The position numbers and the translations under genes were made by a program. Below are positions 25,848 through 64,000 of a DNA stretch of 64,000 nt, piece after piece (the stretch's first letter is position 1; each line of letters starts with the position of its first letter). The stretch comes from Haliotis rufescens (Eukaryota): the NCBI RefSeq assembly GCF_023055435.1, contig NW_025963846.1, forward strand, positions 29,078,001-29,142,000, in the 5' to 3' direction. Under the pieces are notes generated by a model. That model had not been told where the DNA came from. It ran no database searches and saw only the letters and a list, made by a program, of their open reading frames with translations.

Positions 25848-26626
25848 CTTACTTACTTACTTACTTTGGAGATTTAACGTGCGCTTTCCGACTGATGCGT
25901 ATTTCGCACACGCGCCCGGCCAGGCCATTTAATGTGTTTCCGAAAGGGGCGAAAGTGGTCTGTGCAACCCAAGAGGGGGCTTTAGGGGTTGCTTATATAG
26001 AATTTGGGAATTTTGAGATTTGGAATAGAAGCCGATGGGGTTGGGGAGGAGAACTAAGGGAGCTGGGTGTGGTGGATGCTTGTTTGTTTATGTGATTTTG
26101 ATTTGGTAGGTTATTGTGTTTTTAGATGCGTTTTATTAGTTCCGTTTTGATTAAGAATACGCCTAAGGCCTTGAAGTTGTCTAGTTTATTTTGTGGGTTT
26201 AGTATTGCTTCTAGAGTGAGAGCCTTGTTTAGATTGAGGGTGGTTTGTAATGTGGTTCGATGTGTTAGGTATGTGTGTGCAGTGGATAAGTGCGTGTTCT
26301 GGGGTTTCTAGTTGTTTGCAGTGTGGGCAGTTACCTGTAGTGTGTTTTTTAAATTTGTTTTAGGTGGTTATTTAGGTTGGCGTGTCCTGTTTGGAGTTTA
26401 GTGATCACTCTGTCGATTTCTTTTGATGGATGGAGAATTTTTGGTTTGGTTAGTGGTTTGCTGAGCACTTTTTTGATTTGGCTATTTGAGTTTAGATATA
26501 GGTTATGCCATTTTTGTGATTTAATGCTTGTTTACACTTTTAATTTCTGATTTTGAGATGGGTAAGTTTAAGCTTATTTCTGGGATTTTCAGGGATAGTT
26601 TGGCTGCTTTATCGGCGTCTTCATTT
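25848..26626 (-). mobile_element. Shorter copy of the same I/Nimb LINE family (3' end)
   Basis: Reverse complement of ~22155-22930 with substitutions; (ACTT)n tail; TSD TACTCTTTA at 25839-25847 and 26627-26635. Confidence 0.92.
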
Positions 26627-27599
26627 TACTCTTTAAAGTGAAGCCTTTTTTTCATGGTATGTGCCTAGTCGGAAAATCCCTTGCTTTTACCTAATCCGTC
26701 GTGTGTTTTTTTCAAGGATCATACTCACAGGGTAACACTTGGAGAAGGTAAGGTGAGACACTTTGCATTTCAGGATAAACCTCTCCCTGAACCCTGCTTA
26801 ATGCTTCTATTATCTATGAGTGTGTTTAGGAAAACAGGATTATCTGAGACAGTTGTAATCTGCCATACCACGAGAATACGTGCTGCATCTCCGAGCAGCT
26901 CGTTCTGTGAAAATTTCATATTTGGCAAGGTGAGCGTATCCTGCACCACCTGTGGAACAAACACACGCAAAGGCAAGTTAGTTGTTAAACCCAAAAAATA
27001 CGAAAACGATAAGCACAAGTCAAAACAGAGAATTTCATCGGACATAACTCCATTTGCTACTTCTGTGGTAGTCACCAATCAACCCATTTATACTTCAAAA
27101 AATAGCTTTAACCCTTTTAAAGCTTTTGAGAAATTCAACAGTATGGTCTGACAAAGCAAGAAGCACAAATGGGGCATGTTTCGGCCAATGATTAGAGTAT
27201 TCTTGCAAGTCTAAGGGTCCAACAGGAGTTATTTCTGCGACATGCTATTTCAAAACCCAAAATTCAGAGGGATATATATGAAAAGAAAAATTGAAATAAT
27301 ACAAATATAAATTCCTTCCAGGTGAAGGCTATCACTTGAAATCAAATTAACAAAGCAGATTTTAGTCAATGACACATCTCTTGGGGTAGAAGTTCATCTC
27401 TGTCACCATGCTATGGTATTTCTGGAAAGGAAAGTTAACTTACAAAGTTGTAATATACGTTAAAGGCTTAATGTTGCTGATTAAGCGCAAAGATATAAAC
27501 TCTGACTGACTGCTCAGTAACATTCATGTAATATTAGTAATATTCAAATAAGTGTACTTGTTCTAGGTATGTGTGACGTGGGTACATATATATAAGCGT

Positions 27600-28528
27600 A
27601 TAGAAGAAACGTCAACAAACTTGTAACTATGTATAAAATAATAAATAAGCCATGTCCTTCATTTATAACTGATCTTATACCACCACTTGTGTCACAGAAG
27701 GTCAGTTATAATCTCAGAAACTGCCATGATTTTGTAGTTCCATTTGCACGGACATCTACGTTTAAAAGGTCTTATATTATAGATACATTAGGCCAACAGA
27801 ATAATCTATCGTCAGGAATTAGGGATAGTCCGTCAATATCTTATTTTAAAGCTGTCGCATCTGAGCAGCCTACATCACCACCTATGCACTATAATTGCGG
27901 TGAGAGATCTACAAACATATTGAACACTAGATTGAGACACAATTGTAGCACACTAAATTCCAACCTGTTTCGTGTTAATTATCTGATACTATTTCCTGTA
28001 AATGCGGAGCTCCTTTGTTAAAATTCATTCCATTTCTTCTTCCAATGTACCTTATATGATGATATTAGGGAGACATTACTGACAGCTATCGATAATCTTG
28101 GAGGACAAAAAAACTCTAATTTGTATTCTTTTTGTGATCCAACCTTAGATGTTTTCCTGAATACAAAAATATTCTTGTCTGTACACAAATTTATAGAAAC
28201 GAGTAACAGATTCAGAAGCTAGCATATTATGGTTTCCAAACTGTTAATCATTAATATTGTTTAATCTATATACAACACTAACGTGTATAATATTAGCTAA
28301 TGTATGGGATGCACACTGTCTTCACTTTCCAGCACATTTTACATATCCTTCATATGAGCACTGTATATATATTTATATTGCGCACTATGTTTCCACAATG
28401 TGATGCTTCAACTGTAAATTGTAAATTTTCATTATGCAATATTATGTATAACTGTATATAGGGTGAAAGTGGTAATAAGTGCTGCACTTGTGCCCAATCC
28501 CTTTGTCTTTGTGGACAATACAATATGT

Positions 28529-28558
<30 letters not shown>
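27600..28558 (+). mobile_element. CR1/L2-group LINE 3' fragment
   Basis: MYKIIN..P..L..YNLRN..FARTSTFKRSY..TRLRHNCSTLNSNLFR C-terminus; (AAT)n tail at 28530-28558. Confidence 0.8.
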
Positions 28559-28559
<1 letters not shown>

Positions 28560-30394
28560 GCAACCAATGTATTATGATCAGGATCCATTGGTATCCCTTC
28601 AGCAAGTGCGAATCAGGTCCTAACACATCTGTTTTGTCATGTATCACGCGCTATACAGTCGAACCTTTCATATGTGAAATGAATGGCAAAAATATGATTT
28701 ATGAAGTATCTACCAATTACTAATAAAATACATTGTGCTGTACAGACTAACACAGCATGCTGTGACAGCGCGCTGGTTTATTGAAACGGCTGATGAAATG
28801 CATATGTAGCCTAGTTTAGACTATAGACTTGTTTTGTGTACAGATGTGACGACGAGGTTGGGATAACCTGACACACATGAGCATTAATAGCCATGTTTAC
28901 CTGTACTAGTTGAGAGCCAAGGTTGAAGTCATTCATGTGTGAAAAATGTTGTCGAGGCATCTGTAAACGGCTAAAGAAATGCAAATGTAGCCTAGTTTAG
29001 AATATACACTTGCTTTGTGTACAGATGTGACGGCAAGGTAAGGGCAACCTGACACACATGAGCATTAAAAGCCATGTTTACCTGTACTTGTAGTTGACTG
29101 CCAAAAATGCTGTCGAGGCATCTGTACATCTTCTTTGTCGAATTGCATTATTAAAGTACATCAAGATGAGACATCATATACATTCATATATATTTGTTGA
29201 GCACGAAACCTTGAAGTGTAGCCAGGACATTTCCTCAAAACTATGGGCGGCCATGTAGCTTCAATATCTTATAAATTATATCACTGAACATAGGTCAAGG
29301 TGTATTCAGTAAACAAAGATCTGAAGGGCTGTATTTCCTTCATCGTACACACTATGCGTTCGTCACAGTTTGTGAAGGATTACGGATACGAACGAACTAG
29401 CACTTGTTTGGCAGGTAGGTTTTGTTAAGATTTGTTATCTTGTTCTCTCTCTACCCTCTACTTCCTTAATCACAATTTAAATCCTAAATAGACTTTCGGG
29501 CCCAACACTGTGGCAATTTTAGACCCTCTGTTTCTGTATTTACTTGAGCTCATTTCCCCTAAGGTTTTCACATCTCATAAGACTAAGCCATCAATCATGT
29601 TAAAGCTGTCTGACATGTTTCTTATGAACAGTTTATGAACCTAAACAATGTCCAAGTGACTTAAGCACAAAAATACGCGAACACTTCTGACACAGAATTT
29701 CTTAAGAAAATACAGTAAAAATGCTTCACTTGATGATACATCTGTGAAGTTTAAGTTGATTTTGATCGCCCGGGCCAAGTCGGACCCAACACAAGACAAA
29801 CACTTCTGATAGAGACTATGTTGAGAATGTAAAGGGAAAGGGCTTCACTTTGAGCACCTTGTTTTCTTTAAGTACATCGATCTGAGACACTATAAAGTGG
29901 TATTTAGGTAGATATAATACTAATCTATAGATGTGAATCCATTAGATGATACATCTGTGAAGTTTAAGTTGATTTGACAGCCCGGGCCAAGTCGTACCGA
30001 ACGCTTCTGACAGAGATTTTCTTAAGAAAATACAGTAAAAATGCTTCACTTTGAGCACCTTGTTTTCTTTAAGTTCAGCGATCTGAGACACTATAAAGTG
30101 GTATTTAGGTAGATATTATACTAGTTTATAGATGTGAAGTAATTAGCCAGTAACACTTTGGCCCGTCTTGGCCCGGCCCGGCCCGACTTTTAGGCAATGC
30201 CGTACAATGGTTTGCTGTGGACCACTTTTTTATTTAATAATGTACAATACGACTAACTAAATACATTGACATACATACATCCATGATACAGAATCAAGCA
30301 AATAAAAATACGAATGCTTACGCTGGTTTATAACAATAATTGGGCATCTGCAATGAGAAAAATGCCAGATACCACCAACAGTATGATTTGGAAC

Positions 30395-33300
30395 CAATTT
30401 TTTAGAATATTTGGCCATTCATTATAACATGATGATAGAAATGTTTGCCTCTCTCTTTTAAAAAATATACATCTGAATAAGTAGTGAAATTCATCAGCAA
30501 TAGATGGAGAATTACATAATATACAGGTTCTATTTTCCTTTGGAATATTTTTCCATCGGCCAGTCTCATTAGGTAAATTATGATTACAGGTTCGAAATCG
30601 TAGTATTGGAATTGATATGCGTTTTGGCAAAAGAAGATATTTATCAAGAACCGGAGTGTTCTTTAAATGCTTATAACATAATCCTTTAGAAACAGAATTA
30701 ACACCACTTCTCCATTTCTGAAAAAAAAATATATCTCTACGTATTTGCTCTACTTCTGACACCAGCCACTTTGTTGTGCAAATTGACGGATTGTTAAATA
30801 CATAAGATAATCCAATACTATCTAGTATATCCCTAACACATCTAACCCAGTGATTTGTTGATGCAATAGTCTTGTTTCTATTAAGTGACAAATATTGATA
30901 TAACAGCTGTGAAAGTTTATACACACCAGTTTGATATGTTAATTTGTGCCAGAAAGATATCATTCGTTTACAAATTATTATTCTTAATGGTAGCCTACCT
31001 AATTCGCCATATATCATATAAAGAGGAGTTGGATTTCTTAATCCTGTGATAAGTCTGAGGAATTTGAGGTGTATACTTTCTATAATTTCTACATTTTCAA
31101 AGCCTCAGATTTCTGAACCCTAAGTTAATATTGGTAATACCATCGTATCAAAGCTGATAATACACAGTCCAAAGGTAAATTTTAATTTCTTGATAATTTT
31201 ATCAGACAAAACATAGCTTTCGATGCACTTTGACTAAGGGAATAGTACAATTCCTGAATACATATAAGTGTCGACAATATCTAGGGTTTTATCAGAATAG
31301 TGAAATTTAAGTTTCAAATTTTTCAATGGGCCACCACCGAAAATCACAACTTTTGTTTTATTTATATTTACATGTAATTTCCACTCTCCACAATATTCAT
31401 TAAAAGAGTCTAAGGCTTTCTGTAAACCTTCTGGTTATTTATCAAATAATACAGCATCATCTGCATACAATAGAATTATGAATTGGATCCATACAATTAA
31501 GTCTTTATCTTCATCATAGTTGAGATTAACTCCTCCACACCCAGATGAAAGCAAAAAGGTTTCCACATCATTTATGAAAATTGAAAATAATAGAGGGGAT
31601 AGGTTTTCTCCCTGTCTGACACCTATATTACAAGGAAAGTAACCAGACATTTTATCATCACACTGTATCAGCGATTTGATATTTTTATACATATTTTGAA
31701 CTAACGTAAGAAATCTACCTTTGATGCCAATAGTCTTCATTTTCCTCCATAATCCGACCTGTTACACAGTGTCAAAAGCTTTAGTAAAGTCTATGAAAGC
31801 GCAGTATAATTTTTGTTTATTATATGTTAATATTTGCATAAGCATATAAATTACAAATATATTGTCAGCAGTTGTAAAAGATTTCCTGAATCCTGCTTGA
31901 GCAGGTGTTAGATTATTATTTTTATTTAAGAATTTAGTCAAACGGTTGTTTAAAATTCTGGTGAATAGTTTTCCCAAACAGCTAAGGATAGTGACAGGCC
32001 TATACGAGTTAGGATCCAGTGGGTCACCTTCTTTCTTGTAAATCGGTTTAATTATTCCCACTGACCAAGATTCTGGAAGTATACCCTTTTCAAATATCAG
32101 GTTAAATAGTTCAACTAACAAAGGGGTTAATAAATCAATACTATCCATAAAATAATCATTTTCTATATATTCAATACCGGATGCTTTATTTCTCTTTAGT
32201 TCTCTTACTGCTATCATAACTTTGTCAGATGTGACACCTCCATTTAAAGTTTCAGAGTCATATTGAGTATCCATAGTACATTGCTCCATTTCCGGGTCTT
32301 CTGAAGTTGTCTCATTCATCGATTTAAAAAAACTGGTAAAATACTTCAATTTCATCTAACATTTTCCAAAACTCTTTTGGAGAGTGTTAGTGTTTTTCTC
32401 TTAACATTTTACCTAAGATATCTTTATATTGTTTTATATGCTTATCCATACATCTTATAAGCCCTATATTCATATTTTAACAGGCGTTTATTATAATTAG
32501 AATTAAATCTTTTCAAGCGGCGTTTTGCTTTGTAAAAAACCTTTTCTAGCATTTATACATTCCTTTCCAAACCATGGTTTATTCATCTTACATTTCTTAC
32601 CGACACCCTGCCTCCGGGTCCGAAGGCATCGCGTGCAGCGTCTACCAGCACGTGCCCGGCCTCTTCAGTTATGTCATTGATCAGATGTGGGTCAGCTTGG
32701 CCTTGTCTAGCCACATGTGCTTTCCGAGTGAGAATGTTTATCCTTTCAGCATTTAAATGTTGTAGAAACCTGTTAGTTCTGTCTGTATTATAACGTTTTG
32801 GTCTAGGATGAGTATTTTGTACTGTATTTACTCCACACTGGATACCTACCGTTTGTTCTTGGAGTACAGTGGTGGCTTAAGAAAAAGACACTGGGCAGTG
32901 CACATCTGAATTCAGGGGTGAGAAATCTAAAATGGCTAAGTCAGTGAACAGAAGTAAGCACATGGGGGAGGCTAAAACACAGTCAACAACACTTACATCA
33001 TTACATGTTGTTTTACTACATTTTTATCCTGTCCCAGTCTACCATTACAGATGAATAAGTTAAGATTTTTACATATCTCTATTATTTTATTCCCTGAATT
33101 ATTAACCCTTGCATAATCTTGATTAGCCCTGACCTGTGGTATATTAAGTTTATCTAATAATTTATCAGGCTCAAATTCATTACACATATCATTTATATCA
33201 ATATCAAACTATCTGAGTACTTGCTTATTGAATATGGTATAATCACATAGCTGTTTAGTTCTTGCATTGAAGTCACCAATCAAGACAACATACTCACTCA

Positions 33301-33752
33301 AAGAGAGAAAAGGAAGTAAATTCTTTTCAATTTTATTGTATGTCTCACTTGTAAAGTAATTTGAATTTTCTGGAGGTAAATCTACTCTTCCCTAAAAACA
33401 AATCTTGTTTGGTGTCACATAGTGTCTTTGATATTTTTATCCACAGTACATATTCACATTCTTCTTCTTTTATAACTGATATGTATTTTTCCCAATCACA
33501 TCTTATTGCTACCCCGAGGCCACCTGAGCGTCTTATTGCTCCGTTCCTATGCTGAAAGTACAGTTTATAACCTGGTAATTGTAAATCATCTAGTGAATCA
33601 GTTTTGGTTTCCTAAAATCCTATGATACCCTTGTTTTTAATGAAATTGGTAAATTCTTGATATTCTAACTGCTTTCTAAGGCCACATATATTTAATGAAA
33701 GTAGTCTTAGGTGGTTGTGGTTACTTGCATTATAAACATTATCATTATCATT

Positions 33753-33793
<41 letters not shown>

Positions 33794-34070
33794 AACCATC
33801 ATTTTCAACAATTTCACTGTTATCATCTATACATTCATCAAAAACATCAACATTATCAGCATCGACAGTCATGCCCTCATTTTCTTGTACATTATCAGCA
33901 TCGACAGTCATGCCCTCATTTTCTTGTACATTATCAGCATCGACAGTCATGCCCTCATTTTCTTGCACATTATCAGCATCTACAGTCATGCCATCATTTT
34001 CTTGTACACTGGTGACAGTATGAACATTGTCACCAGTAGAGTGGATATCACTCATTTCACAGGCAAACTT
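30395..34070 (-). mobile_element. Decayed RTE-X-like LINE (APE + RT), frameshifted
   Basis: SLNICGL and GDFNART (APE); NSYRPVTILSCLGKLF, QAGFRK, FIDFTKAFDTV, GVRQGENLSP, LLYADD, IYGELGRLPL, CILC..DEFHYLFRC. Confidence 0.88.
33740..34010. repeat. (CAT)n microsatellite plus 39-bp minisatellite x4
   Basis: CATTATCAGCATCGACAGTCATGCCCTCATTTTCTTGTA repeats; minus strand reads VQENEGMTVDADN and poly-Asp just before the APE domain. Confidence 0.9.
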
Positions 34071-34697
34071 ATGCAGGGAGGGCATGGAGTGGGAGAACAA
34101 CAGTCATAACAGTCATTAATGGGGCAACGGCGATCGGAGGGAGTAGAGGCGGCAGGCTTGTGAAGAGTAGATTGGGAAAGCAAAGACGTATATAAGTCTT
34201 TGGGGAAATTGAGCCATGGGGTTTTGGTCATTTGCACCTTTAGATTTTCGGCGGATCCTCCAAGGAAAACAAGATTTACAGGCGGGCGTACCAGCAATTG
34301 AGTTAGTAGGTTTGAATGAAAAGAGAGACATTGATACCTTAAAACTTAACAAGAATGACAAAATTGTATTCACACTTACCCAGTGGAAATGAACACAAAA
34401 AAATCACTAAAAGTCACAAAGTCACTGACACATGGTAATGAGAGTTCAGTTGAATTGTTTTGCCTTTGATGAAGTCCTTGTTTTCGCATGTAGGGGTCGT
34501 TGTTCATGCGTTGCTTGCATCTGTGGAGTGGAGTCCAAGGGTACAAGTTGTTCTTCAGTATCCTTTTCACCTAGCTACAAAGTGTCTGAATTGTGGTTTC
34601 CGTGGCACCATTGACAACATTTTAAGCATTTGTCTGACGGGAATGGCTGGGACCTTCCACCGGCGATACCCAACCACACCAACCACACAGACACAAA

Positions 34698-35658
34698 CTA
34701 CAACAACCTAGAAAAAATATTATACAACCACCAGAAACCTGTATTCAGCTTTGAACAAACTTGTTCTGCTGTTGGGCGTCCATCTATATCTCCTTTTAAG
34801 GCTCCTTTGATGATGTCTCGCAGTCCCTGGTCAGCGACATGACGGAGTTCTATTTCCCCTGCCATCTCGGCCAGACGGCGTCCATTGTAGTAGGCAACTA
34901 GTTTGTTGTGGTCAAATTCCTGACGCAATAAAGCAAAGGCGATAGCGCCAAGAGAGAAAATATCACTTTTCTCTGTCAGAGCCGCTTCAGGGGGTGTAAA
35001 ACAAGTGTATCCTGTCCCATCGTCCCCGTGTTGTTGCCCACCTTCCCCGGCATGTGAAAAACAAGTGTTTCTGGTCCAATGCTCCCCGTCATGCTCTCCG
35101 TCGCGCTCTCCGTCACGTTTCCCGAATTGTCCCCCGTCATGTTGCCCATCTTCCCTGACATGTTCCTGCGTCAGGCGACGAGCTGCCGATCCAAATCCTC
35201 CTATTTTATAAACAGGTTTACCGCGTGACATCAGAACGTCCCCTCTCACTAGGATGTTTTCTGGCTGTATATTTCCGTGTATGATATCAATGTTATGGAG
35301 AAACCGTAAACCACTGGCAATGTCGATCATGACAGAACGACAGTCGACCTCGCCTAGAGGTCTGTTCATGGTTAAACGTCTACTCACATACTGGTCCAGG
35401 TTGCCCAACTGGCAATATTCAAAGGTCAATATGAAGCCATCTGCAGTAAAACCTTCACCAATCATCTTTACAATGTTTTTTCCATTCTGCGCATTTTAGT
35501 AGTATGTCCTTTTCGGTGGCTACACATCTTTGTGAACACACAAGTACTTTTTCAAGAACCGTTTCGCCACCCTTTCCACCCTTTCTCACTGTTGAGAACC
35601 GACCTTGGACAAGATCTGTTCGCGCAAATATTCTGAGTAGATGCCTTTGGGTATACAT
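34698..35658 (-). pseudogene. Pseudokinase subfamily C (A/B mosaic), frameshifted
   Basis: N-lobe start (DLVQGRFSTV..VLEK..TEKDIL) and remainder (HGNIQPEN, IGGFG, FTPPE, SDIFSLG) lie in different frames around 35480; TAG at the start of the hydrophobic tail. Confidence 0.8.
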
Positions 35659-36683
35659 CCTCTGAACAGTCTCAAGGAAATGCGACGTAGTACATTCAGT
35701 TGTTAGATTCAGTGACGTGTAATTATATTTAGACTGAGCACGTGGCTGGACTTGGCTGTGAGTCAGCCTGTCATGTCGTGCTTTCGTTTTCCTCTGTTGT
35801 GTATGAAAGGCCAGTAGGGCTTTTCCCGGAATGACACAAATTTGTTTAAAATGGACCACGACTTGTTTCATTAAAGAGCACCATGTAAATAGTATCTCGT
35901 TTATGGCCCAATGTCAAAGCCTGAAAAACAATTTTTTACTGCCTAACTCGAGGAAGTATTTCTGTGCAGTCAATGAAACTTGGTACATGTGATCACTTAT
36001 GTAAAAGAGTTTTAGTACACAATTATTGTACCTCCAGTCTTTGGCTCGTAAGCTTATAATCATCGGCAATTTCCGGAAGTAATCGTAAATGTCATTTTTT
36101 TTCCTATTTTAAATAAAGCCTTTCTCTGCAATTTATAAGATTGGCAGAACTAATAATTTCCATATTCAGTTTATTAATAAGTAGTATTTTCACTTTCTAT
36201 ATCTCGTAACGAAAATGTTTCACATTTTCCCATGGTGCATTTGTGTTATCATCTCATCTCGCGCCAAGCTCATGCTGATGTAGTGTCTTTTCCCAGCAAG
36301 CCATTTTCAACGTTTATACTTCATTTCCCAGAAAATAACGAGTCAGTACGCTCCCCATGCTGGCATCCTATTACTGTGATGTTTGTGATTTGTTTGCATA
36401 GACAAGATAGTTAATTAGCCGACGCTATACCACTGGACCACAGGCGCTATCACATGTGATCAGTGCTCGTTTAACGGGTCATTAGAATCCCCATTGACAT
36501 GCATGCGTAATCATTAAACGATGAATTGCGCATGCGTGTGACGTCACCGTCCGCTCTCCCATTCATCTTTCCTTGAAACCGCACCCGCAATTGTTTATGT
36601 CAACATGACCGACCATTGGGATTAACCGGATTAACGCTTGAAAAGGTAAGAATTTATGGCTAACCCTTGCCCAAAGCCAGCTG

Positions 36684-37043
36684 ACCCTAATGACCGAAAA
36701 GGGGTTTTGGATCGTAAAGACGTGTAAGTTTCCCTAAGACCGAAAACGGGTGTTGGATCGTAAAAACGTGTAAGTTTTCCTAAGACCGAAAAACGGGTGT
36801 TTGATCGTAAAGATGTGTAAGTTTCCCTAAGACCGAGAACGGGTGTTTGATTGTAAAGATGTGTAAGTTTCCCTAAGACCGAAAACGGGTGTTGGATCGT
36901 GAAGCGAGAGTCACCAGAGCGTGAGGCACGGTAACGGTATAACGAGACAGCGGTGGCACTATAGCGCGGTAATTGAGTGGATGGTAGAGCTCGGGCTGCG
37001 CCCGGTAAACTGCATTGTTGCCCCCGTTTTCGGTCTTGGGGGT
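36684..37043. repeat. ~46-bp tandem repeats (x5) closed by an inverted copy of the motif; MITE-like
   Basis: CCCTAAGACCGAAAACGGGTGTTGGATCGTAAAGATGTGTAAGTTT repeats to ~36900; CCCGTTTTCGGTCTTGGGG at ~37023-37041. Confidence 0.6.
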
Positions 37044-40690: not shown

Positions 40691-41720
40691 TACGTGTTAT
40701 CAAGCTGTAACTGCTGGAATATTGCTCCAGGTACGTGTTATCATGCTGTAACTGCTGGAATATTGCTCCGGGTACGTGTTATCATGCTGTAGCTGCTGGA
40801 ATATCGCTCCGGGAACGTGTTATCATGCTGTAGCTGCTGGAATATTAATCCGGATACGTGTTATCATGCTGTAGCTGCTGGAATATCGCTCCGGGTACGT
40901 GTTATCATGCTGTAGCTGCTGGAATATCGCTCCGGGTACGTGTTATCATGCTGTAACTGCTGGAATATCGCTCCGGGTACGTGTTATCATGCTGTAGCTG
41001 CTGGAATATCGCTCCGGGAACGTGTTATCATGCTGTAGCTGCTGGAATATCGCTCCGGGAACGTGTTATCATGCGTTAGCTGCTGGAATATCGCTCCGGG
41101 TACGTGGTATCATGCTGTAGCTGCTGCAATATTAATCCGGATACGTGTTATCATGCTGTAGCTGCTGGAATATCGCTCCGGGTACGTGTTATCATGCTGT
41201 AGCTGCTGGAATATTGCTCCGGGTACGTGTTATCATGCTGTAACTGCTGGAATATTGCTCCGGGTAAGTGTTATCATGCTGTAGCTGCTGGAATATCGCT
41301 CCGGCAACGTGTTATCATGCGTTAGCTGCTGGAATATCGCTCCGGGTACGTGGTATCATGCTGTAGCTGCTGGAATATTAATCCGGATACGTGTTATAAT
41401 GCTGTAGCTGCTGGAATATCGCTCCGGGTACGTGTTATCATGCTGTAGCTGCTGGAATATCGCTCCGGGTACGTGTTATCATGCTGTAGCTGCTGGAATA
41501 TCGCTCCGGGTACGTGTTATCATGCTGTAGCTGCTGGAATATCTCTCCGGGAACGTGTTATCATGCTGTAGCTGCTGGAATATCGCTCCGGGTACGTGTT
41601 ATCATGCTGTAGCTGCTGGAATATCGCTCCGGGTACGTGGTATCATGCTGTAGCTGCTGCAATATTAATCCGGATACGTGTTATCATGCTGTATTTGCTG
41701 GAATATCGCTCCGGATACGT
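40691..41720. repeat. 41-bp satellite array 2 (~25 units)
   Basis: Same monomer with private variants such as TATTAATCCGGATACG. Confidence 0.97.
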
Positions 41721-44107: not shown

Positions 44108-45121
44108 TCACTGGCGACGCAGGAACACACCAATACCAACACCAATACCAATCGCACAGATTGCAAGGTAGCCATAAGCCAGTTTCATCAAAACAGGATC
44201 CGAGTAAACTGTTTTCAGCATTTCACAAACTTGTTCTGCAGTTGGGCGTTTGGACATGTCTCTCTGTAAGGCTGCCTTGATCACGTCTCCCAGTCCCTGA
44301 TCAGCGACATGACGGAGTTCTATTTCCCCTCTTACCTCGGCCAGACGGCGTCCATTGTAGTAGGCAACTAGTTTGTTGTCGTCAAATTCAGGACGCAATA
44401 AAGCAAAGGCGATAGCGCCAAGAGAGAAAATATCACTTTTCACTGTCAGAGCCGCTTCAGGGGGTGAAAAACAAGTTTCTCCTGTCCCATCGTTCTCGTC
44501 ATGTTCCCCATCTTCCCCGTCATGTACGCCAAAATGTCCCCCGTCATGTACGCCAAAATGTCCCCCGTCATGTACGCCAAAATGTCCCCCGTCATGTACG
44601 CTAAAATGTCCCCCGTCATGATCCCCGCCATGTCTCCTGTCACGTTCCAGGCCACGTCTCCCGTCATATTCCGATAACGAGCGAGCCGATCCAAATCCTG
44701 CTATTTTATAAACCGCTCGATTGTACCATGTCACAAGGATGTTTTCTGGCTGCAGGTTACGGTGTTCTATGCGCAAGTTATGAAGAAACTCCAATCCACT
44801 GCCAATGTCGGTTACGACAGAACGACAGTCGGCCTCGTCTAGAGGATTCTTCGAGTTTGAACGTTTACTCACATACTGGTCCAGGCTGCCTTCCTCGCAA
44901 TATTCAAAGGTCAGTGTGAAGCCATCTGCAGTAAAACCTTCACCAATCATCTTGACAATGTTCTTGGCCCCTTCAGATTCTGCACATTGTCGGAGTATGT
45001 TCTTTTCGGCGGCTGCTTGACGTTGTGAGCAGACAAGTACTTTCTCAACAACCATCTTGTTACCTTTCTTTTCCTTGCGCACTCTTGAGAACCGACCAGG
45101 AACAAGTTCTATTCCCGCCAT
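44108..45121 (-). CDS. Tail-anchored pseudokinase A2 (337 aa)
   Basis: Intact ORF; HRN/GFG; 4 octarepeats; TM followed by RRQ. Confidence 0.92.
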   Translation of the reverse strand: MAGIELVPGRFSRVRKEKKGNKMVVEKVLVCSQRQAAAEKNILRQCAESEGAKNIVKMIGEGFTADGFTLTFEYCEEGSLDQYVSKRSNSKNPLDEADCRSVVTDIGSGLEFLHNLRIEHRNLQPENILVTWYNRAVYKIAGFGSARSLSEYDGRRGLERDRRHGGDHDGGHFSVHDGGHFGVHDGGHFGVHDGGHFGVHDGEDGEHDENDGTGETCFSPPEAALTVKSDIFSLGAIAFALLRPEFDDNKLVAYYNGRRLAEVRGEIELRHVADQGLGDVIKAALQRDMSKRPTAEQVCEMLKTVYSDPVLMKLAYGYLAICAIGIGVGIGVFLRRQ

Positions 45122-46020
45122 TCTTCGTATTCGTGGAATACAACTCCTCTGAACAGTCTCAAGGAAATGCGACGTAGTAGTTAGATTCGGTGACGTGAAG
45201 TTATATTTAGACTGAACACCTGACCGAGAGTCAGTAGGTCAGGTCGTGGTTCAGATAACCCCTGTTGTTATCTAAGGCCATCAGGACGACCATCCTTCGT
45301 CACTACTCGCCTCTTTCCGTAGCTTGTCCCGGAATGAACCACGACATGTGGTATTCAGCAGCACCATGTAAACAGTTTATCAAGGCCATTGATCGAAAAA
45401 TACTGATTACCTCGTAATTTGATGAGGATTTACTGTACAGTCAATTACTTAGCGTGGGATCCAAATCGAGAAGGGCCAGAGTCACCTGTGTATAAGGTCA
45501 TGTCACAGTAAAGGTCAATATTACAGAATGTTTGCAATGCAGGGTTGTTATTTGAATACTTAACACTTATGAGCGACGAGTGTTGACAATCTTATGATAC
45601 GAGGAGTTGGTCATGGTCTTGGCCTTTGATGGAGTCCTTGGCTTTATTTTTGGTCCTTTGCTTATTTTGGTTTTCGCACGGACACGGGATTTGCATGTAG
45701 GGGTCGTTGTTCATCCGTTGCTTGTGGCTGTGGAAGGTGGAGTCCAAGGGCACTTGTTTTTGGTCTTCACATCAGTTTGCTGTAAACCACACATCACAGT
45801 TATAATATGTGACAGAATCCTTTTCACAAAGCTACAAAGTGGCCGAATTGTGGTATCCGTGGCACCATTGACAGACAGTGTGGTCAACTAAATCTCCCAT
45901 TCACAATGTTAGTGGTTGGTTGTATTGTGGACTCCACAGCTGGCTCTCTACATATCCACACAGTTTCACTTCATATTGATCCATAGAAATATATTGGGAT
46001 AATGATCTCGTTAATTTTTT

Positions 46021-46887: not shown

Positions 46888-47517
46888 TTTTCGTATGCCT
46901 GGAATATGACTCCTCTGAATAATCTCAAGGAAATGCGACGAAGTACAGTTAGATTCAATGGCGCGTAGTTATATTTAGACTGAACACCTGACTGTGAGTC
47001 AGCCAGTCAGGTCGTGGTTCAGATAACCCTTGTTGTTACCTAAGCCCGTCAGGACTACCATCGTTCGTCACTACTCGCCTCTCTCCGTAGCTTGTCCCGG
47101 AATAACACGAGTTGGCCACGAATGAATCACTTGATATATTTAGTAACACAATGTTAATATTATCTCCATTATAGCCCAAGGCCATAGCCTGAAGAGCTCA
47201 CACCAAAAAATCGATATTACAGTACGTTTTCACCTTATCACTAAAATGCCATTTGGTGCAGATATGTACTCAGCGGGTCATGTGGTCAGGCTCGCTGATT
47301 TGGTTAATTCATGTCATCGTGTCCCAATTGCGTGGATCGATGCTCATGACATCAATCACTGGATTGTCTGGTCCAGACTCGATTAATTACAGACGGCGTC
47401 ATGTACCTGGAATGTTGATGAGTGCGGCGTAAACAACAAAGTTGCAAAGTACAGAATGGAGACCTAGTTGAGGTGAGGTGAGGTGAAATTGGGTTTAAAC
47501 GTCGCGTCCAAGATTAC

Positions 47518-48770: not shown

Positions 48771-49205
48771 ATGCTGTAGCTGCTGGAATATCGCTCCGGG
48801 TACGTGTTATCATGCTGTAGCTGCTGGAATATCGCTCCGGGTACGTGTTATCATGCTGTGGCTGCTGGAATATTGCTCCGGGTACGTGTTATCATGCTGT
48901 AGCTGCTGGAATATCGCTCCTGGTACGTGTTATCATGCTGTAGCTGCTGGAATATCGCTCCGGGTACGTGTTATCATGCTGTAGCTGCTGGAATATTGCT
49001 CCGGGTACGTGTTATCATTCTGTAGCTGCTGGAATATCGCTCCGGGTACGTGTTATCATGCTGTAGATGCTGGAATATCGCTCCGGGTACGTGTTATCAT
49101 GCTGTAGCTGCTGGAATATCGCTCCGGGTACGTGTTATCATGCTGTAGCTGCTGGAATATCGCTCCGGGTACGTGTTATCATGCTGTAGCTGCTGGAATA
49201 TTGCT
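48771..49205. repeat. 41-bp satellite array 3 (~10.5 units)
   Basis: Same monomer. Confidence 0.97.
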
Positions 49206-51924: not shown

Positions 51925-52914
51925 TCACTGGCGACGCAGGAACACACCAATACCAACACCAATACCAATCGCACAGATTGCAAGGTAGCCATAAGCCAGT
52001 TTCATCAAAACAGAATCCGAGTAAACTGTTTTCAGCATTTCACAAACTTGTTCTGCTGTTGGGCGTTTGGACATGTCTCTCCGTAAGGCTGCCTTGATCA
52101 CGTCTCCCAGTCCCTGATCAGCGACATGACGGAGTTCTATTTCCCCTCTTACCTCGGCCAGACGGCGTCCATTGTAGTAGGCAACTAGTTTGTCGTCGTC
52201 GAATTCAGGACGCAATAAAGCAAAGGCGATAGCGCCAAGAGAGAAAATATCACTTTTATCTGTCAGAGCCGCTTCAGGGGGTGAAAAACAAGTGTCTCCT
52301 GCCCCATCGTTCTCGTCATGTTCCCCATCTTCCCCGTCATGTACGCCAAAATGTCCCCCGTCATGTACGCCAAAATGTCCCCCGTCATGTACGCTAAAAT
52401 GTCCCCCGTCATGATCCCCGCCATGTCTCCTGTCACGTTCCAGGCCACGTCTCCCGTCACATTCCGATAACGAGCGAGCCGATCCAAATCCTGCTATTTT
52501 ATAAACCGCTCGATTGTACCATGTCACAAGGATGTTTTCTGGCTGCAGGTTACGGTGTTCTATGCGCAAGTTATGAAGAAACTCCAATCCACTGCCAATG
52601 TCGGTTACGACAGAACGACAGTCGGCCTCGTCTAGAGGATTCTTCGAGTTTGAACGTTTACTCACATACTGGTCCAGGTTGCCTTCCTCGCAATATTCAA
52701 AGGTCAGTGTGAAGCTATCTGCAGTAAAACCTTCACCAATCATCTTGACAATGTTCTTGGCCCCTTCAGATTCTGCACATTGTCGGAGTATGTTCTTTTC
52801 GGCGGCTGCTTGACGTTGTGAGCAGACAAGTACTTTCTCAACAACCATTTTGTTACCTTTCTTTTCCTTGCGCACTCTTGAGAACCGACCAGGAACAAGT
52901 TCTATTCCCGCCAT
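51925..52914 (-). CDS. Tail-anchored pseudokinase A3 (329 aa)
   Basis: Intact ORF; 3 octarepeats. Confidence 0.92.
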   Translation of the reverse strand: MAGIELVPGRFSRVRKEKKGNKMVVEKVLVCSQRQAAAEKNILRQCAESEGAKNIVKMIGEGFTADSFTLTFEYCEEGNLDQYVSKRSNSKNPLDEADCRSVVTDIGSGLEFLHNLRIEHRNLQPENILVTWYNRAVYKIAGFGSARSLSECDGRRGLERDRRHGGDHDGGHFSVHDGGHFGVHDGGHFGVHDGEDGEHDENDGAGDTCFSPPEAALTDKSDIFSLGAIAFALLRPEFDDDKLVAYYNGRRLAEVRGEIELRHVADQGLGDVIKAALRRDMSKRPTAEQVCEMLKTVYSDSVLMKLAYGYLAICAIGIGVGIGVFLRRQ

Positions 52915-53813: not shown

Positions 53814-54680
53814 CTAAATTATATCCCATTGTTTCAGTGTTATTTCTGAAATATATGCAGACACAACTACAACGCCGCCAAAAATCAGAATATTCCACCA
53901 CGTGTAACCTGTATTCAGCATTGAACAAACTTGTTCTGCTGTTGGGCGTCCAACTATATCTCCTTTTAAGGCTTCATTGATGATGTCTCGCAGTCTCTGG
54001 TCAGTGATGTGACGGAGGTCTATTTCCCCTGCCATCTTGGCCAGATGACGTCCACCATAGTAGGCAACTAGTTTGTCGTTGACAAATTGCGGACTCCATA
54101 AAGCATAGGTGACAGCTCCAAGGGAGAAAATATCACTTTTCTTGTCCAGAGCCCCTTCAGGGGGCAAAAAACAAGAGTCTTCAGTCGCATCTAACCCACC
54201 ATGTTCCTCAACTCTCCTGTTATTTCTCCTGGCCTTGCGACGAGCTGCCGATCCAAATCCTCCTATTTTATAAACAGGTTTACTGTATGACGTCACAAGG
54301 ATGTTTTCTGGCAGTAGGTTGCCGTGTATGATATCAATGTGGTGAAGAAACTGCAAACCACTGGCAATGTCGGTCATGAAAGAACGACAGTCGGCTGCAT
54401 TCGGAGGTTTCTTCATGAATAAACGTTTACTCACATATTGGTTCAGGTTGCCTTCCTCGCAATATTCCAAGATCATTGTGACGCCTTTTGCAGGAAAAGC
54501 GTCATAAATCTTGACAATGTTTTTGGCCCCTTCAGATTCTGCGCATTGTCGGAGTATATTCTTTTCGGCGTCTGCAATCGGCTGTGGACACGAAAATGCT
54601 TTCACAAGCACCGTTTTGTTACCTATGTTAAAGTTCCTCAATGTTGAGAACCGACCTTGAACCAGCTCTGTTTCCTTCAT
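53814..54680 (-). CDS. Tail-anchored pseudokinase B3 (288 aa)
   Basis: Protein identical to B2. Confidence 0.92.
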   Translation of the reverse strand: MKETELVQGRFSTLRNFNIGNKTVLVKAFSCPQPIADAEKNILRQCAESEGAKNIVKIYDAFPAKGVTMILEYCEEGNLNQYVSKRLFMKKPPNAADCRSFMTDIASGLQFLHHIDIIHGNLLPENILVTSYSKPVYKIGGFGSAARRKARRNNRRVEEHGGLDATEDSCFLPPEGALDKKSDIFSLGAVTYALWSPQFVNDKLVAYYGGRHLAKMAGEIDLRHITDQRLRDIINEALKGDIVGRPTAEQVCSMLNTGYTWWNILIFGGVVVVSAYISEITLKQWDII

Positions 54681-56567: not shown

Positions 56568-56920
56568 ATGCTGTAGCTGCTGGAATATCGCTCCGGGTAC
56601 GTGTTATCATGCTGTAGCTGCTGCAATATCGCTCCGGGTACGTGTTATCATGCTGTGGCTGCTGGAATATAGCTCCGGGTACGTGTTATCATGCTGTAGC
56701 TGCTGGAATATCGCTCCGGGTACGTGTTATCATGCTGTAGCTGCTGGAATATCGCTCCGGGTACGTGTTATCATGCTGTAGCTGCTTGAATATTGCTCCG
56801 GGTACGTGTTATCATGCTGTAGCTGCTGGAATATCGCTCCGGGTACGTGTTATCATGCTATAGCTGCTGGAATATCGCTCCGGGTACGTGTTATCATGCT
56901 GTAGCTGCTGGAATATTGCT
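56568..56920. repeat. 41-bp satellite array 4 (~8.5 units)
   Basis: Same monomer. Confidence 0.97.
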
Positions 56921-59589: not shown

Positions 59590-60579
59590 TCACTGGCGAC
59601 GCAGGAACACACCAATACCAACACCAATACCAATCGCACAGATTGCAAGGTAGCCATAAGCCAGTTTCATCAAAACAGAATCCGAGTAAACTGTTTTCAG
59701 CATTTCACAAACTTGTTCTGCTGTTGGGCGTTTGGACATGTCTCTCCGTAAGGCTGCCTTGATCACGTCTCCCAGTCCCTGATCAGCGACATGACGGAGT
59801 TCTATTTCCCCTCTTACCTCGGCCAGACGGCGTCCATTGTAGTAGGCAACTAGTTTGTCGTCGTCGAATTCAGGACGCAATAAAGCAAAGGCGATAGCGC
59901 CAAGAGAGAAAATATCACTTTTATCTGTCAGAGCCGCTTCAGGGGGTGAAAAACAAGTGTCTCCTGCCCCATCGTTCTCGTCATGTTCCCCATCTTCCCC
60001 GGCATGTACGCCAAAATGTCCCCCGTCATGTACGCCAAAATGTCCCCCGTCATGTACGCCAAAATGTCCCCCGTCATGATCCCCGCCATGTCTCCTGTCA
60101 CGTTCCAGGCCACGTCTCCCGTCACATTCCGATAACGAGCGAGCCGATCCAAATCCTGCTATTTTATAAACCGCTCGATTGTACCATGTCACAAGGATGT
60201 TTTCTGGCTGCAGATTACGGTGTTCTATACGCAAGTTATGAAGAAACTCCAATCCACTGCCAATGTCGGTTACGACAGAACGACAGTCGGCCTCGTCTAG
60301 AGGATTCTTCGAGTTTGAACGTTTACTCACATACTGGTCCAGGTTGCCTTCCTCGCAATATTCAAAGGTCAGTGTGAAGCCATCTGCAGTAAAACCTTCA
60401 CCAATCATCTTGACAATGTTCTTGGCCCCTTCAGATTCCCCGCATTGTCGGAGTATGTTCTTTTCGGCGGCTGCTTGAAGTTGTGAGCAGACAAGTACTT
60501 TCTCAACAACCATCTTGTTACCTTTCTTTTCCTTGCGCACTCTTGAGAACCGACCAGGAACAAGTTCTATTCCCGCCAT
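59590..60579 (-). CDS. Tail-anchored pseudokinase A4 (329 aa)
   Basis: Intact ORF; 3 HDGGHFGV repeats; no adjacent B gene upstream. Confidence 0.92.
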   Translation of the reverse strand: MAGIELVPGRFSRVRKEKKGNKMVVEKVLVCSQLQAAAEKNILRQCGESEGAKNIVKMIGEGFTADGFTLTFEYCEEGNLDQYVSKRSNSKNPLDEADCRSVVTDIGSGLEFLHNLRIEHRNLQPENILVTWYNRAVYKIAGFGSARSLSECDGRRGLERDRRHGGDHDGGHFGVHDGGHFGVHDGGHFGVHAGEDGEHDENDGAGDTCFSPPEAALTDKSDIFSLGAIAFALLRPEFDDDKLVAYYNGRRLAEVRGEIELRHVADQGLGDVIKAALRRDMSKRPTAEQVCEMLKTVYSDSVLMKLAYGYLAICAIGIGVGIGVFLRRQ

Positions 60580-61336: not shown

Positions 61337-62710
61337 TACTGAACCAAATTAAAAACTTCACAATCCTAAAATTTTAACATTTTGACTAGTTATCATTGTG
61401 GGCCCTTATTGTGTATTTAAACAGTAATGGCCACGTATTGTCTTTAGATAACACCCGTTTTTGTGCAGGTGAATCGATCAAAATCATGTGCACAGCACTA
61501 TAATGGCAAAGGTGTTTTTTCAGCCATACTTGTTAGCAGTCATTAACAAAAAAAGGAAAAACACAAGAAAACAAAAGTCTTTACGGCCATTTGTCATGCC
61601 AGGCCTTTCAAATGTGCAACGTGAACGTGCCATCGTCATGTTGCAGACGGGAACGTCCGTAGCTGAAGTCGCAAGGACGATGGGTTGTAGTCGACGGACT
61701 GTTTATGATTTACAGACGCGTCTACAGAAAACGGGTACCACCGCTGATCGCCCTCGGCCAGGTCGACCACGTGTGACGTCACATGCAGAGGATCGTCAGA
61801 TTGTCTTACGTCACCTCCGTAACCGATTTTTGACGGCTACATCAACCAGAAATAAACTGTTTAGGGGTAGACTGAGTGCGCAAACTGTTCGAAACCGTCT
61901 GAGAACTGCTCACCTTCAAGCACGACGGCCATACTGCGGGCCGATTCTGACTCAATTACACAGACGTCAACGTCAATTGTGGGCACAGCGACACTTAAGA
62001 TGGTCTCAGAGGAATTGGAATCAAGTCGTCTTCAGTGATGAATCCCGATTTAATCTTCGATTTGCTGATGGTAGGGCGAGGGTGTGGAGGCGCCGTCATG
62101 AACGTTACGCCCAGTGTTGTATACAGGAAGTTGACAGATTTCGAGGCGGAAGTGTCATGGTGTGGGGTGCTTTCTGTGGCAATGCACGTTCCAGGTTTCT
62201 TGTCATCCATGGCAACCTCAACGCTGCTGCTTACCGCGACCAGGTACTGGCACCAGAACGTCTGATTTTATGGCAGCACATGGACCCGGTTTGATCTTCT
62301 AACACGACAATGCCCGACCCCACACAGCAATTTTGACAAGGAATTTCCTTCAGAATGCGGGAGTCAACGTCATGGACTGGCCGTCAAGGTCTCCTGACCT
62401 CAATCCCATCGAACACGTCTGGGATGCTCTTGGCAGAAGTCTGCGCACTCTCCAGAACCAACCACAGAATTTGCAACATCTTGTCACCATTTTGCAGTAA
62501 CAATGGCGTCGTCTTCCCAATCATGTGTTCACAAGCATCACAAGGTCCATGCGGAGGCTTTGTGTGGCAGTTGTCAACGCACATGGTGGCCATACACGCT
62601 ACTGAACTTGTGTGCCATCAGATTCTCGTGCTTGGGACTTATATATGTTGTCTTCGATCCCTCACTCACTGATACCAATACATCTAAAAAGTAATGTCAT
62701 CATTTAAATG
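61337..62710 (+). mobile_element. Defective Tc1 transposon, copy 2
   Basis: Same frameshift, stops and flanks as copy 1 at offset 50,090. Confidence 0.92.
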
Positions 62711-63814: not shown

Positions 63815-64000
63815 TGGGAGGGGTGTTTTTGGGAGTGGGTGTGGGTGTGGGTGTGGGTGTGGGTGTGGGAGTGGGTGTGGGAGTGGGTGTGGGTGTGGGA
63901 GTGGGAGTGGGAGTGGGTGTGGGTTTGGGTGTGGGTGTGTATTGTGGGAGTGGGTGTGGGTGTGGGTGTGGGTGTGGGTGTGGGTTTCGGTGTGGGTTTG
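63815..64000. repeat. Start of second G/T hexamer satellite
   Basis: GGGTGT repeats with the same left flank as at 13720. Confidence 0.95.

Follow-up and report, generated by a model that had tools for sequence, protein, structure and literature searches.

The His/Gly octarepeat in the activation loop of subfamily A, one branch of a kinase-like gene cluster in Haliotis rufescens, is best explained as a by-product of minisatellite growth in a loop set free when catalysis was lost, a reading to which we assign a probability of roughly 0.58. The protein that carries it is predicted to be a non-catalytic, tail-anchored scaffold or decoy. Throughout, the window is the whole 64,000-nucleotide stretch that was analysed, and coordinates refer to it unless a contig is named.

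The octarepeat and its host protein

Gene A2 encodes a protein identical to entry P0006 of the protein collection. Its features and the genes A1, A3 and A4 are listed below.

44108..45121, minus strand: A2 coding sequence, one open frame of 337 aa, a kinase-fold pseudokinase with a C-terminal hydrophobic helix
44756..44764, minus strand: A2 HRN in place of HRD, catalytic Asp gone, with the HRD+2 Lys changed to Gln
44690..44698, minus strand: A2 GFG in place of DFG, Mg-binding Asp gone
44465..44683, minus strand: A2 full activation segment from GFGSA to PPE, 73 aa
44525..44620, minus strand: A2 in-frame units, 4 x 24 bp, one HDGGHFSV and three HDGGHFGV, residues 168-199
44489..44524, minus strand: A2 acidic stretch HDGEDGEHDEND, directly after the array
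44120..44176, minus strand: A2 C-terminal hydrophobic segment, residues 316-334, mean hydropathy 2.0, followed by RRQ and the stop
7303..8316, minus strand: A1, four units at 7720-7815
51925..52914, minus strand: A3, three units at 52342-52413
59590..60579, minus strand: A4, three units at 60007-60078

Using Tandem Repeats Finder, the A2 array was detected with a 24-bp period at 44515-44620 and 98% matches, and matching 24-bp arrays were found in the window at 7710-7815, 52332-52413 and 59997-60078. GFG lies at residue 142 of A2 and PPE at residue 220, with the array in between and inside the Pfam Pkinase domain. Repeat and frame analysis confirmed the preliminary description of a coding minisatellite between GFG and PPE with copy numbers of 4, 4, 3 and 3 in A1-A4. 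The head-to-tail, GC-rich and near-identical units number three or four in all eight A genes of the cluster, so that copy number does vary, as claimed, between paralogs (which were compared here, rather than individuals). The commonest 24-mer has 21 exact occurrences in the 1.33-Gb genome, each within the eight A genes, compared to 0 for the reversed 24-mer. The array is therefore real and not a chance pattern, and a genome-wide mobile minisatellite was ruled out as the source of the unit, given that the exact 24-mer is confined to these genes.

At the DNA level, 21 of 27 A units are identical, silent sites included, and the variants fall into four types with 4 replacement changes and 1 silent change. 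The proposed unit HDGGHF(G/S)V holds in general, but one A1 unit reads HEGGHFGV, one A copy has Gln instead of His in its first unit, and other A copies also hold HDGGQFSV and HDEGHFGV units. Each A loop carries 9-11 His and a patch of 5-6 Arg ahead of the array; that of A2 has 11 His, ten of them at a spacing of 4, and a net charge of -11. The acidic sequence reported after the array is likewise present in the sense that A loops are acidic (net -9 to -13), although A4 reads HAGEDGE rather than HDGEDGE. That the array is always in frame is correct for A but automatic, because 24 bp is a whole number of codons; one sister copy (D'') has an expanded loop out of frame and is also 5'-truncated. 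The flanking parts of the A loop are as free to vary as the core: 40 flanking codons show 6 replacement and 2 silent variants, and 223 core codons show 24 and 11.

All three main subfamilies of the window score well above the cut-off of 31.7 bits for Pfam Pkinase (PF00069; A 91.9, B 79.4 and C 66.8 bits). In 22 of the 22 copies examined, the HRD Asp is replaced (HRN, HGN or HAN) and DFG has become GFG. The beta3 Lys position in A corresponds to Glu26 when aligned to the closest active relatives and to Lys27 when aligned to Aurora A and ULK3; it is probably Glu, that is, lost. By the sequence definition outlined in PMC13519141, which is based on loss of the HRD Asp, the DFG Asp and the beta3 (VAIK) Lys, A, B and C classify as pseudokinases. 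The view of the activation loop as a regulatory surface does not carry over to such proteins: both catalytic Asp residues are missing from all 22 copies, which leaves the loop without an activity to switch.

An AlphaFold model of A2, built from a 22-sequence alignment, has a kinase fold (mean pLDDT 75.9) with a final helix at residues 309-336. Residues 155-161 and 164-214 fall below a pLDDT of 50, and the A activation loop is accordingly modelled as disordered. Foldseek matched the model to the kinase domains of IRAK4, Aurora A and ULK1 (E 4e-14); these were generic kinase matches at 17-21% identity among which no specific relative was found, and the ESM Atlas returned generic kinase clusters and nothing closer. 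A hydrophobic 19-mer lies near the C-terminus in E, D, A and B (mean hydropathy 1.6-2.1), with sequences that differ between them, whereas C has none (0.37). Because of this hydrophobic C-terminal segment, and because no hydrophobic N-terminal leader was seen in the sequence, a tail anchor is predicted, with the kinase domain and its loop in the cytosol. Mitochondrial tail anchors typically consist of a short anchor followed by basic residues.

A tandem cluster with a repeat-prone loop

A search of the abalone's own genome, together with 324 kb of neighbouring sequence, placed 30 intronless kinase-like loci on one strand over ~255 kb (C68:28.943-29.197 Mb). Twenty are intact (8 A, 6 B, 4 B', 1 D and 1 E) and ten are broken or doubtful: three C (one frameshifted and two without an in-frame start), two F (A/E mosaics carrying a stop), two D' (a stop at the start of the loop), D'' (frame lost within the repeat) and two B'' that are split by a 6.4-kb insertion, which RefSeq splices out (P0004). 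The building blocks of the cluster are a 7.8-kb unit of B plus A and a duplication offset by 128.5 kb (C68:29,005,000-29,070,000 versus 29,134,000-29,198,000) at 99.1-99.5% identity, one 14-kb piece of which is present as a third copy (window 22933-36991). This duplication may be recent and segmental, or may partly reflect two haplotypes assembled in tandem.

Public names for the loci are scattered, including aurora A-like, irlF, PKR-like, mos-like, ULK3-like and ark1-like. Several RefSeq models (P0005, P0008 and P0012-P0016) join A to the next B, join B' to B' or splice off the B tail at PTAEQ. Among the joints listed for four putative RNA runs, none matched these models, which possibly arise from mis-mapping between near-identical copies or represent real anchor-less isoforms.

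Other elements of the window include a 41-bp satellite that occurs once per 7.8-kb unit (1-5087, where the window begins and the copies exceed 124, 40691-41720, 48771-49205 and 56568-56920) and long, extremely G-skewed (TGGGTG)n arrays at 13733-16380, adjoining an N stretch, and at 63830-63997. We take the open frames at 11383-12204 and 61473-62294 to be of Tc1-type transposase origin, the frame at 18761-20566 to be a Penelope-type reverse transcriptase and that at 20746-22656, of which L057 holds a near-identical copy, to be a LINE reverse transcriptase with RNase H; the frames at 30328-32355 are presumably LINE fragments.

The following sister genes and loops were compared with subfamily A.

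34698..35658, minus strand: C copy with an N-lobe frameshift near 35490; its loop has one HDGGQFGK and a duplicated TCF segment
46021..46887, minus strand: B2 pseudokinase (HGN/GFG) with a 27-aa loop, net charge +2
9154-10020: B1
53814-54680: B3
C68:28,974,777-28,976,006: L035, D-type, with a 135-residue DGER/GGER 12-bp array
C68:28,965,700-28,967,300: L034, D-type, with a DGER/GGER array of about 400 codons, frame lost inside the array

From GFGSA to PPE, the loop measures 20 residues without a repeat in E and the two F, 27 in the 12 B-type copies, 63 in the three C, 65 or 73 in the eight A, 135 in D, 143 in the two D' and about 400 codons, with the frame lost, in D''. The D-type loops are arrays of an Arg-rich 12-bp unit encoding DGER, GGER or DGEH, the commonest form of which is present 13 times in D; most of the units in D start with Arg, and its 135 residues include 9 His. 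A unit close to that of A, HDGGQFG(E/K), occurs once in C and D and twice in D'', and HDGGHFGV differs from it by Gln to His and Glu to Val. Autocorrelation of the loop DNA at lag 12 was 0.35 in E, 0.41 in B, 0.37 in C, 0.48 in A and 0.69 in D, exceeding lags 3-9 and 15-21 in five of five loops; in E and B, whose loops are short, the signal is weak. Because sister loops hold a single unit, a 12-bp array or no repeat, the octarepeat is one outcome among several in a stretch prone to repeats, which has expanded more than once independently.

These comparisons qualify what had been said of the sister loops. Both the single HDGGQFGK and the duplicated TCF segment of C are present, but in a window copy that is frameshifted. 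The RRKARRNNRR motif of B is there too, but 5 acidic residues alongside leave the loop, described as basic, with a net charge of only +2; its protein sequence is invariant in 10 of 10 intact B and B' copies.

Our preferred explanation starts from an intronless kinase-like gene that lost the HRD and DFG Asp residues and gave rise to the 30 tandem loci. The loop carries a GC-rich element of 12-bp period, seen today as a single seed in E and F, as one 24-bp unit in C and D, as a DGER/GGER array of 135-143 residues in D-type loops and as three or four near-perfect 24-bp units in A. Arrays could grow by DNA slippage or unequal exchange, and their growth would be tolerated because the loop no longer had a switching job after the loss of the catalytic Asp. 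The periodic His would stem from a CAT codon opening each 12-bp half-unit and spread by homogenisation, ten His at a spacing of 4 being what a 12-bp DNA period yields on translation. The loop would then be an acidic, disordered appendage in the cytosol, with a wide range of lengths tolerated. Selection would act on the open frame, the fold and the anchor, and metal binding, if the loop shows any, would be a side effect. Two observations count against this account: all eight A copies have the regular His, reached through Gln to His and Arg to His changes relative to C and D, and the array is nearly unchanged in H. cracherodii and apparently present under three organism labels. Overall, the octarepeat is probably ordinary minisatellite growth, and it cautions that His/Gly periodicity can arise from a 12-bp period in DNA.

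Expression, selection and competing explanations

Contigs of four runs (X15, X16, X18 and X20, with four organism labels and from four studies; 4 of 24 listed, and RNA by guess) extend over A from about 45160-45440 and on across a long 3' region. Those of X20 also span the interval between A and B, where the other three runs have little or no cover. Together this suggests that the A genes of the cluster are transcribed. Because the run data are contigs, read depth ranks nothing, and missing X16 cover over B is no evidence. In three of four runs the contigs break at 44544/44572 inside the array; short-read contigs that break there cannot count units, but read by their break positions, an array of at least about 3 units is apparently present in runs from three organism labels. 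Upstream of B, window 47053-47450 is a very high-copy element, with thousands of contigs per run.

The proximal promoter is shared across the cluster and is given here for A2.

45201..45334, minus strand: A2 shared proximal promoter, with equivalents at 46969-47102 and 35723-35831

Within it we take CTAAATATAA at 45201-45210 to be TATA-like, the heptamer at 45227-45233 to be AP-1-like with one mismatch, and the nonamer at 45326-45334 to be STAT/GAS-like, also with one mismatch. Across the cluster, 28 loci have the TATA-like decamer with an AP-1-like heptamer 23-33 bp upstream, and 25 of these 28 have a GAS-like nonamer 99-133 bp upstream of the decamer. Perfect GAS-like nonamers number 4 in 324 kb, each in a C or D promoter, compared to 4 in 3000 shuffled 250-mers. 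These motifs were chosen post hoc, share a single ancestry and are imperfect in A; they hint at inducible expression under stress or in immunity, short of being evidence for it.

Using our own codon-model code, core dN/dS was 1.03 over 218 codons in 11 copies, which had been picked for open cores from 22 extracted, with loop and tail excluded and the C tip having lost its start. In a neutral simulation, a mean of 14.1 nonsense events arose and all 11 tips stayed open in 0 of 2000 runs. Within the cores of E, D, A and B, indel lengths are 3, 6 or 9 bp, compared to many non-triplet gaps in the flanks; pairs with C show non-triplet gaps in an unconstrained nucleotide alignment despite the open C frame. 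A and B are 78% identical in coding sequence but 86-87% identical in locally aligned flanks, the B flank being that of B3, whose coding sequence is identical to that of B2. M1a was favoured over M0 by 27.8, with 16 null simulations peaking at 13.2, and about a quarter of codons are constrained. With open frames, triplet core indels, a constrained class and dN/dS of about 1, the genes of the cluster look protein-coding and loosely constrained.

M2a improved on M1a by 25-26, with a positive class of 9% of sites at 4.6. With uniform mutation rates, none of eight nulls exceeded the real value, but with gamma-distributed rates and two trees, one of eight did (34.5) and another reached 18.0. Positive selection was dropped, since the heterogeneous-rate null surpassed the M2a signal. 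The N- and C-terminal halves of the genes yield different trees, which indicates gene conversion.

These results bear on the alternative that the cluster serves as an inducible set of immune decoys, by analogy with plant ZED1/ZRK, in which the loops would be bait diversified against pathogen enzymes and the repeat itself selected. We consider this possible, though unlikely. It would account for tandem pseudokinases with birth and death, for open frames at a core dN/dS near 1, for the lower identity between A and B in coding sequence than in flanks, and for the restriction of perfect GAS-like nonamers to C/D promoters and the pairing of all 28 TATA-like boxes with an AP-1-like site. ZRKs are likewise clustered decoy pseudokinases, as outlined in PMC9539561. 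On the other side stand the heterogeneous-rate null that topped the M2a signal, the signs of gene conversion, and promoter motifs that are post hoc, of single ancestry and degenerate in A; moreover, no receptor-like frame was noticed by eye among frames of at least 170 aa in the 324 kb, a survey in which exon-split genes are missed.

The second alternative takes the A loop for a selected multi-His site in the cytosol that would bind Zn or sense pH and thereby change partner binding or clustering, with 3 versus 4 units tuning its affinity. The evidence makes this reading improbable. In its favour are the flexible, Gly-rich and acidic setting of the regularly spaced His in A2, the persistence of the array in H. 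cracherodii and apparently in three organism labels, and the high affinity of multi-His coordination in the prion octarepeat, a mode described as tighter at low occupancy (PMC6721516). In the account of the same source, however, the ligands of the prion copper unit HGGGW include the two Gly amides that follow His. The A loop is a flexible multi-His segment but contains no HGGGW, having Asp or Phe after His instead of Gly-Gly, and, no hydrophobic N-terminal leader having been seen in the protein, it is predicted to be cytosolic, unlike PrP; the prion-like metal analogy of the preliminary description was therefore not upheld. Nor was the idea of a tuned His module, as the sister genes have at the same place either no repeat or another, Arg/Glu-rich 12-bp repeat. 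The E and B loops have 1 His each and D has an Arg-rich array, and the fact that four sister subfamilies do without the His ladder argues, together with the predicted cytosolic location, against a family-defining sensor. The unit variants are mostly replacements, and the spacing of 4 comes straight from the DNA period. Some in-vitro binding of Zn, Cu or Ni is to be expected of many His in a flexible segment and would not discriminate between these readings.

A broader conjecture is that the cluster constitutes an animal array resembling the ZRKs, made up of STAT/AP-1-inducible, tail-anchored and possibly mitochondrial pseudokinases in which the minisatellite diversifies loop baits by subfamily. 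We hold it to be quite unlikely. If true, the bait would be none, basic, acidic-Arg or a Zn-binding His ladder depending on the subfamily, and a mutation-prone DNA repeat would serve as a diversity generator for innate immune decoys. Abalone has been reported to be without MAVS (PMC11103948), which makes a new membrane scaffold conceivable but has no direct bearing on it.

Two further readings are highly improbable. The suggestion of an A-B heterodimer, held together by an acidic A loop and a basic B loop, draws on A and a B-type gene being neighbours within the repeated 7.8-kb unit, on the net charge of A and on the local Arg-rich patch of the invariant B loop, but the charge complementarity proposed earlier is not supported, given the slight net charge of B and the Arg patch that A itself carries before its array; adjacency follows from duplication of the B+A unit, and the four B' copies stand in B'-B' pairs beside F, whose 20-residue loop is repeat-free. 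That the whole cluster is transcribed but decaying debris, with protein and loop functionless, would fit an overall dN/dS of 1.03, the 10 of 30 broken loci and the lost catalytic residues, but it conflicts with the 0 of 2000 neutral simulations that keep frames open, the exclusively triplet core indels of E, D, A and B, a constrained class favoured above 16 of 16 nulls, hydrophobic tails that differ in sequence among E, D, A and B, and an intact A in H. cracherodii.

The family is more interesting than its repeat: 30 tandem, likely tail-anchored pseudokinases under misleading annotation names, with open frames, near-neutral amino-acid change and a shared promoter that has stress/immune-type motifs. 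If infection-responsive, these genes would be candidate sources of variation in disease resistance among abalone, both farmed and endangered.

Taxonomic spread and comparison with known systems

A word-indexed protein search returned 5 clusters, of which the named ones were H. rufescens or H. cracherodii throughout. A full HMMER scan returned one family representative, apart from which two multi-kinase proteins, 28-29% identical, scored below 1e-30. In a profile search that scored 8000 candidates, of near lengths only, no further family member was found among 112 hits, though active kinases of H. rubra and H. asinina were retrieved. The H. cracherodii protein is an intact A with 4 units and differs from A2 at 1 of 73 loop residues and 12 of 264 others; small as these numbers are, the near-identical loop appears to reflect stability rather than runaway drift. 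In literature listings and the openings of abstracts, we found no description of this family. As far as the literature was covered, the cluster thus appears to be an undescribed, lineage-specific group of pseudokinases.

In a quick tree of 50 rows, built with invertebrate PDIK1L-like kinases and without vertebrate or Ciona sequences, the pseudokinases formed one clade (support 100, stem 1.89) that was not placed firmly among the PDIK1L-like kinases. Membership of NKF4 is unsupported, because the stem of the clade is long and its placement in the tree is not fixed.

The same genome contains single-frame 'PDIK1L-like' kinases with an intact HRD (L065, L066, L068, L070 and L071 at C445:13.75-13.93 Mb, as well as L067 and L069), of which L065 and L066 have a long hydrophobic C-terminal segment, pointing to membrane anchoring in active relatives too. 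Two other loci are likely pseudokinases: L072 (C501), which has HGN and DFN as well as a near counterpart in H. rubra (P0100), and L073 (C112), with a hydrophobic tail and without DFG.

The intronless invertebrate kinases that automatic annotation calls PDIK1L-like or STK35-like (for example, Branchiostoma XP_019625684.1 and Haliotis rubra XP_046560995.1 and XP_046551179.1) are among the best single-domain matches outside the family, at about 27-38% identity. Like the abalone cluster they are single-frame genes, but most keep HRD and DFG and have short loops ending in a CGT/APE region, in which the cluster proteins differ. With vertebrate STK35/PDIK1L (NKF4), the common ground is limited to the automated names of relatives. 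The vertebrate proteins are described as catalytically active, with an activation loop regulated by the nuclear phosphatase SCP4 (PMC8796272), whereas the cluster proteins lack catalytically competent motifs; by the account in PMC2737284, genuine STK35/PDIK1L homologs were not found in lancelet, fly, worm or sea urchin.

The plant ZED1/ZRK proteins, guarded by ZAR1, also form a genomic cluster of pseudokinases, proposed as decoys in PMC9539561, and the 30 abalone loci in about 255 kb match them in being a tandem pseudokinase cluster. A way of working may be shared, but ZED1/ZRK belong to another kinase lineage and kingdom, and the likeness would be one of mode of action. The prion octarepeat PHGGGWGQ resembles the A array as an eight-residue His/Gly unit encoded by 24 bp and present in 3-4 copies in a flexible region. 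The A loop differs in having no Trp, two His per unit and Asp after His, lies inside a kinase fold and shows no sign of homology. Finally, the catalytic-motif substitutions of the cluster occur singly in human JAK2 JH2, HER3 (HRN) and CASK (GFG), as outlined in PMC13519141, whereas the abalone proteins combine HRN and GFG with a degenerate Gly-rich loop and a beta3 Lys that is probably lost, and show no sign of orthology to human pseudokinases.
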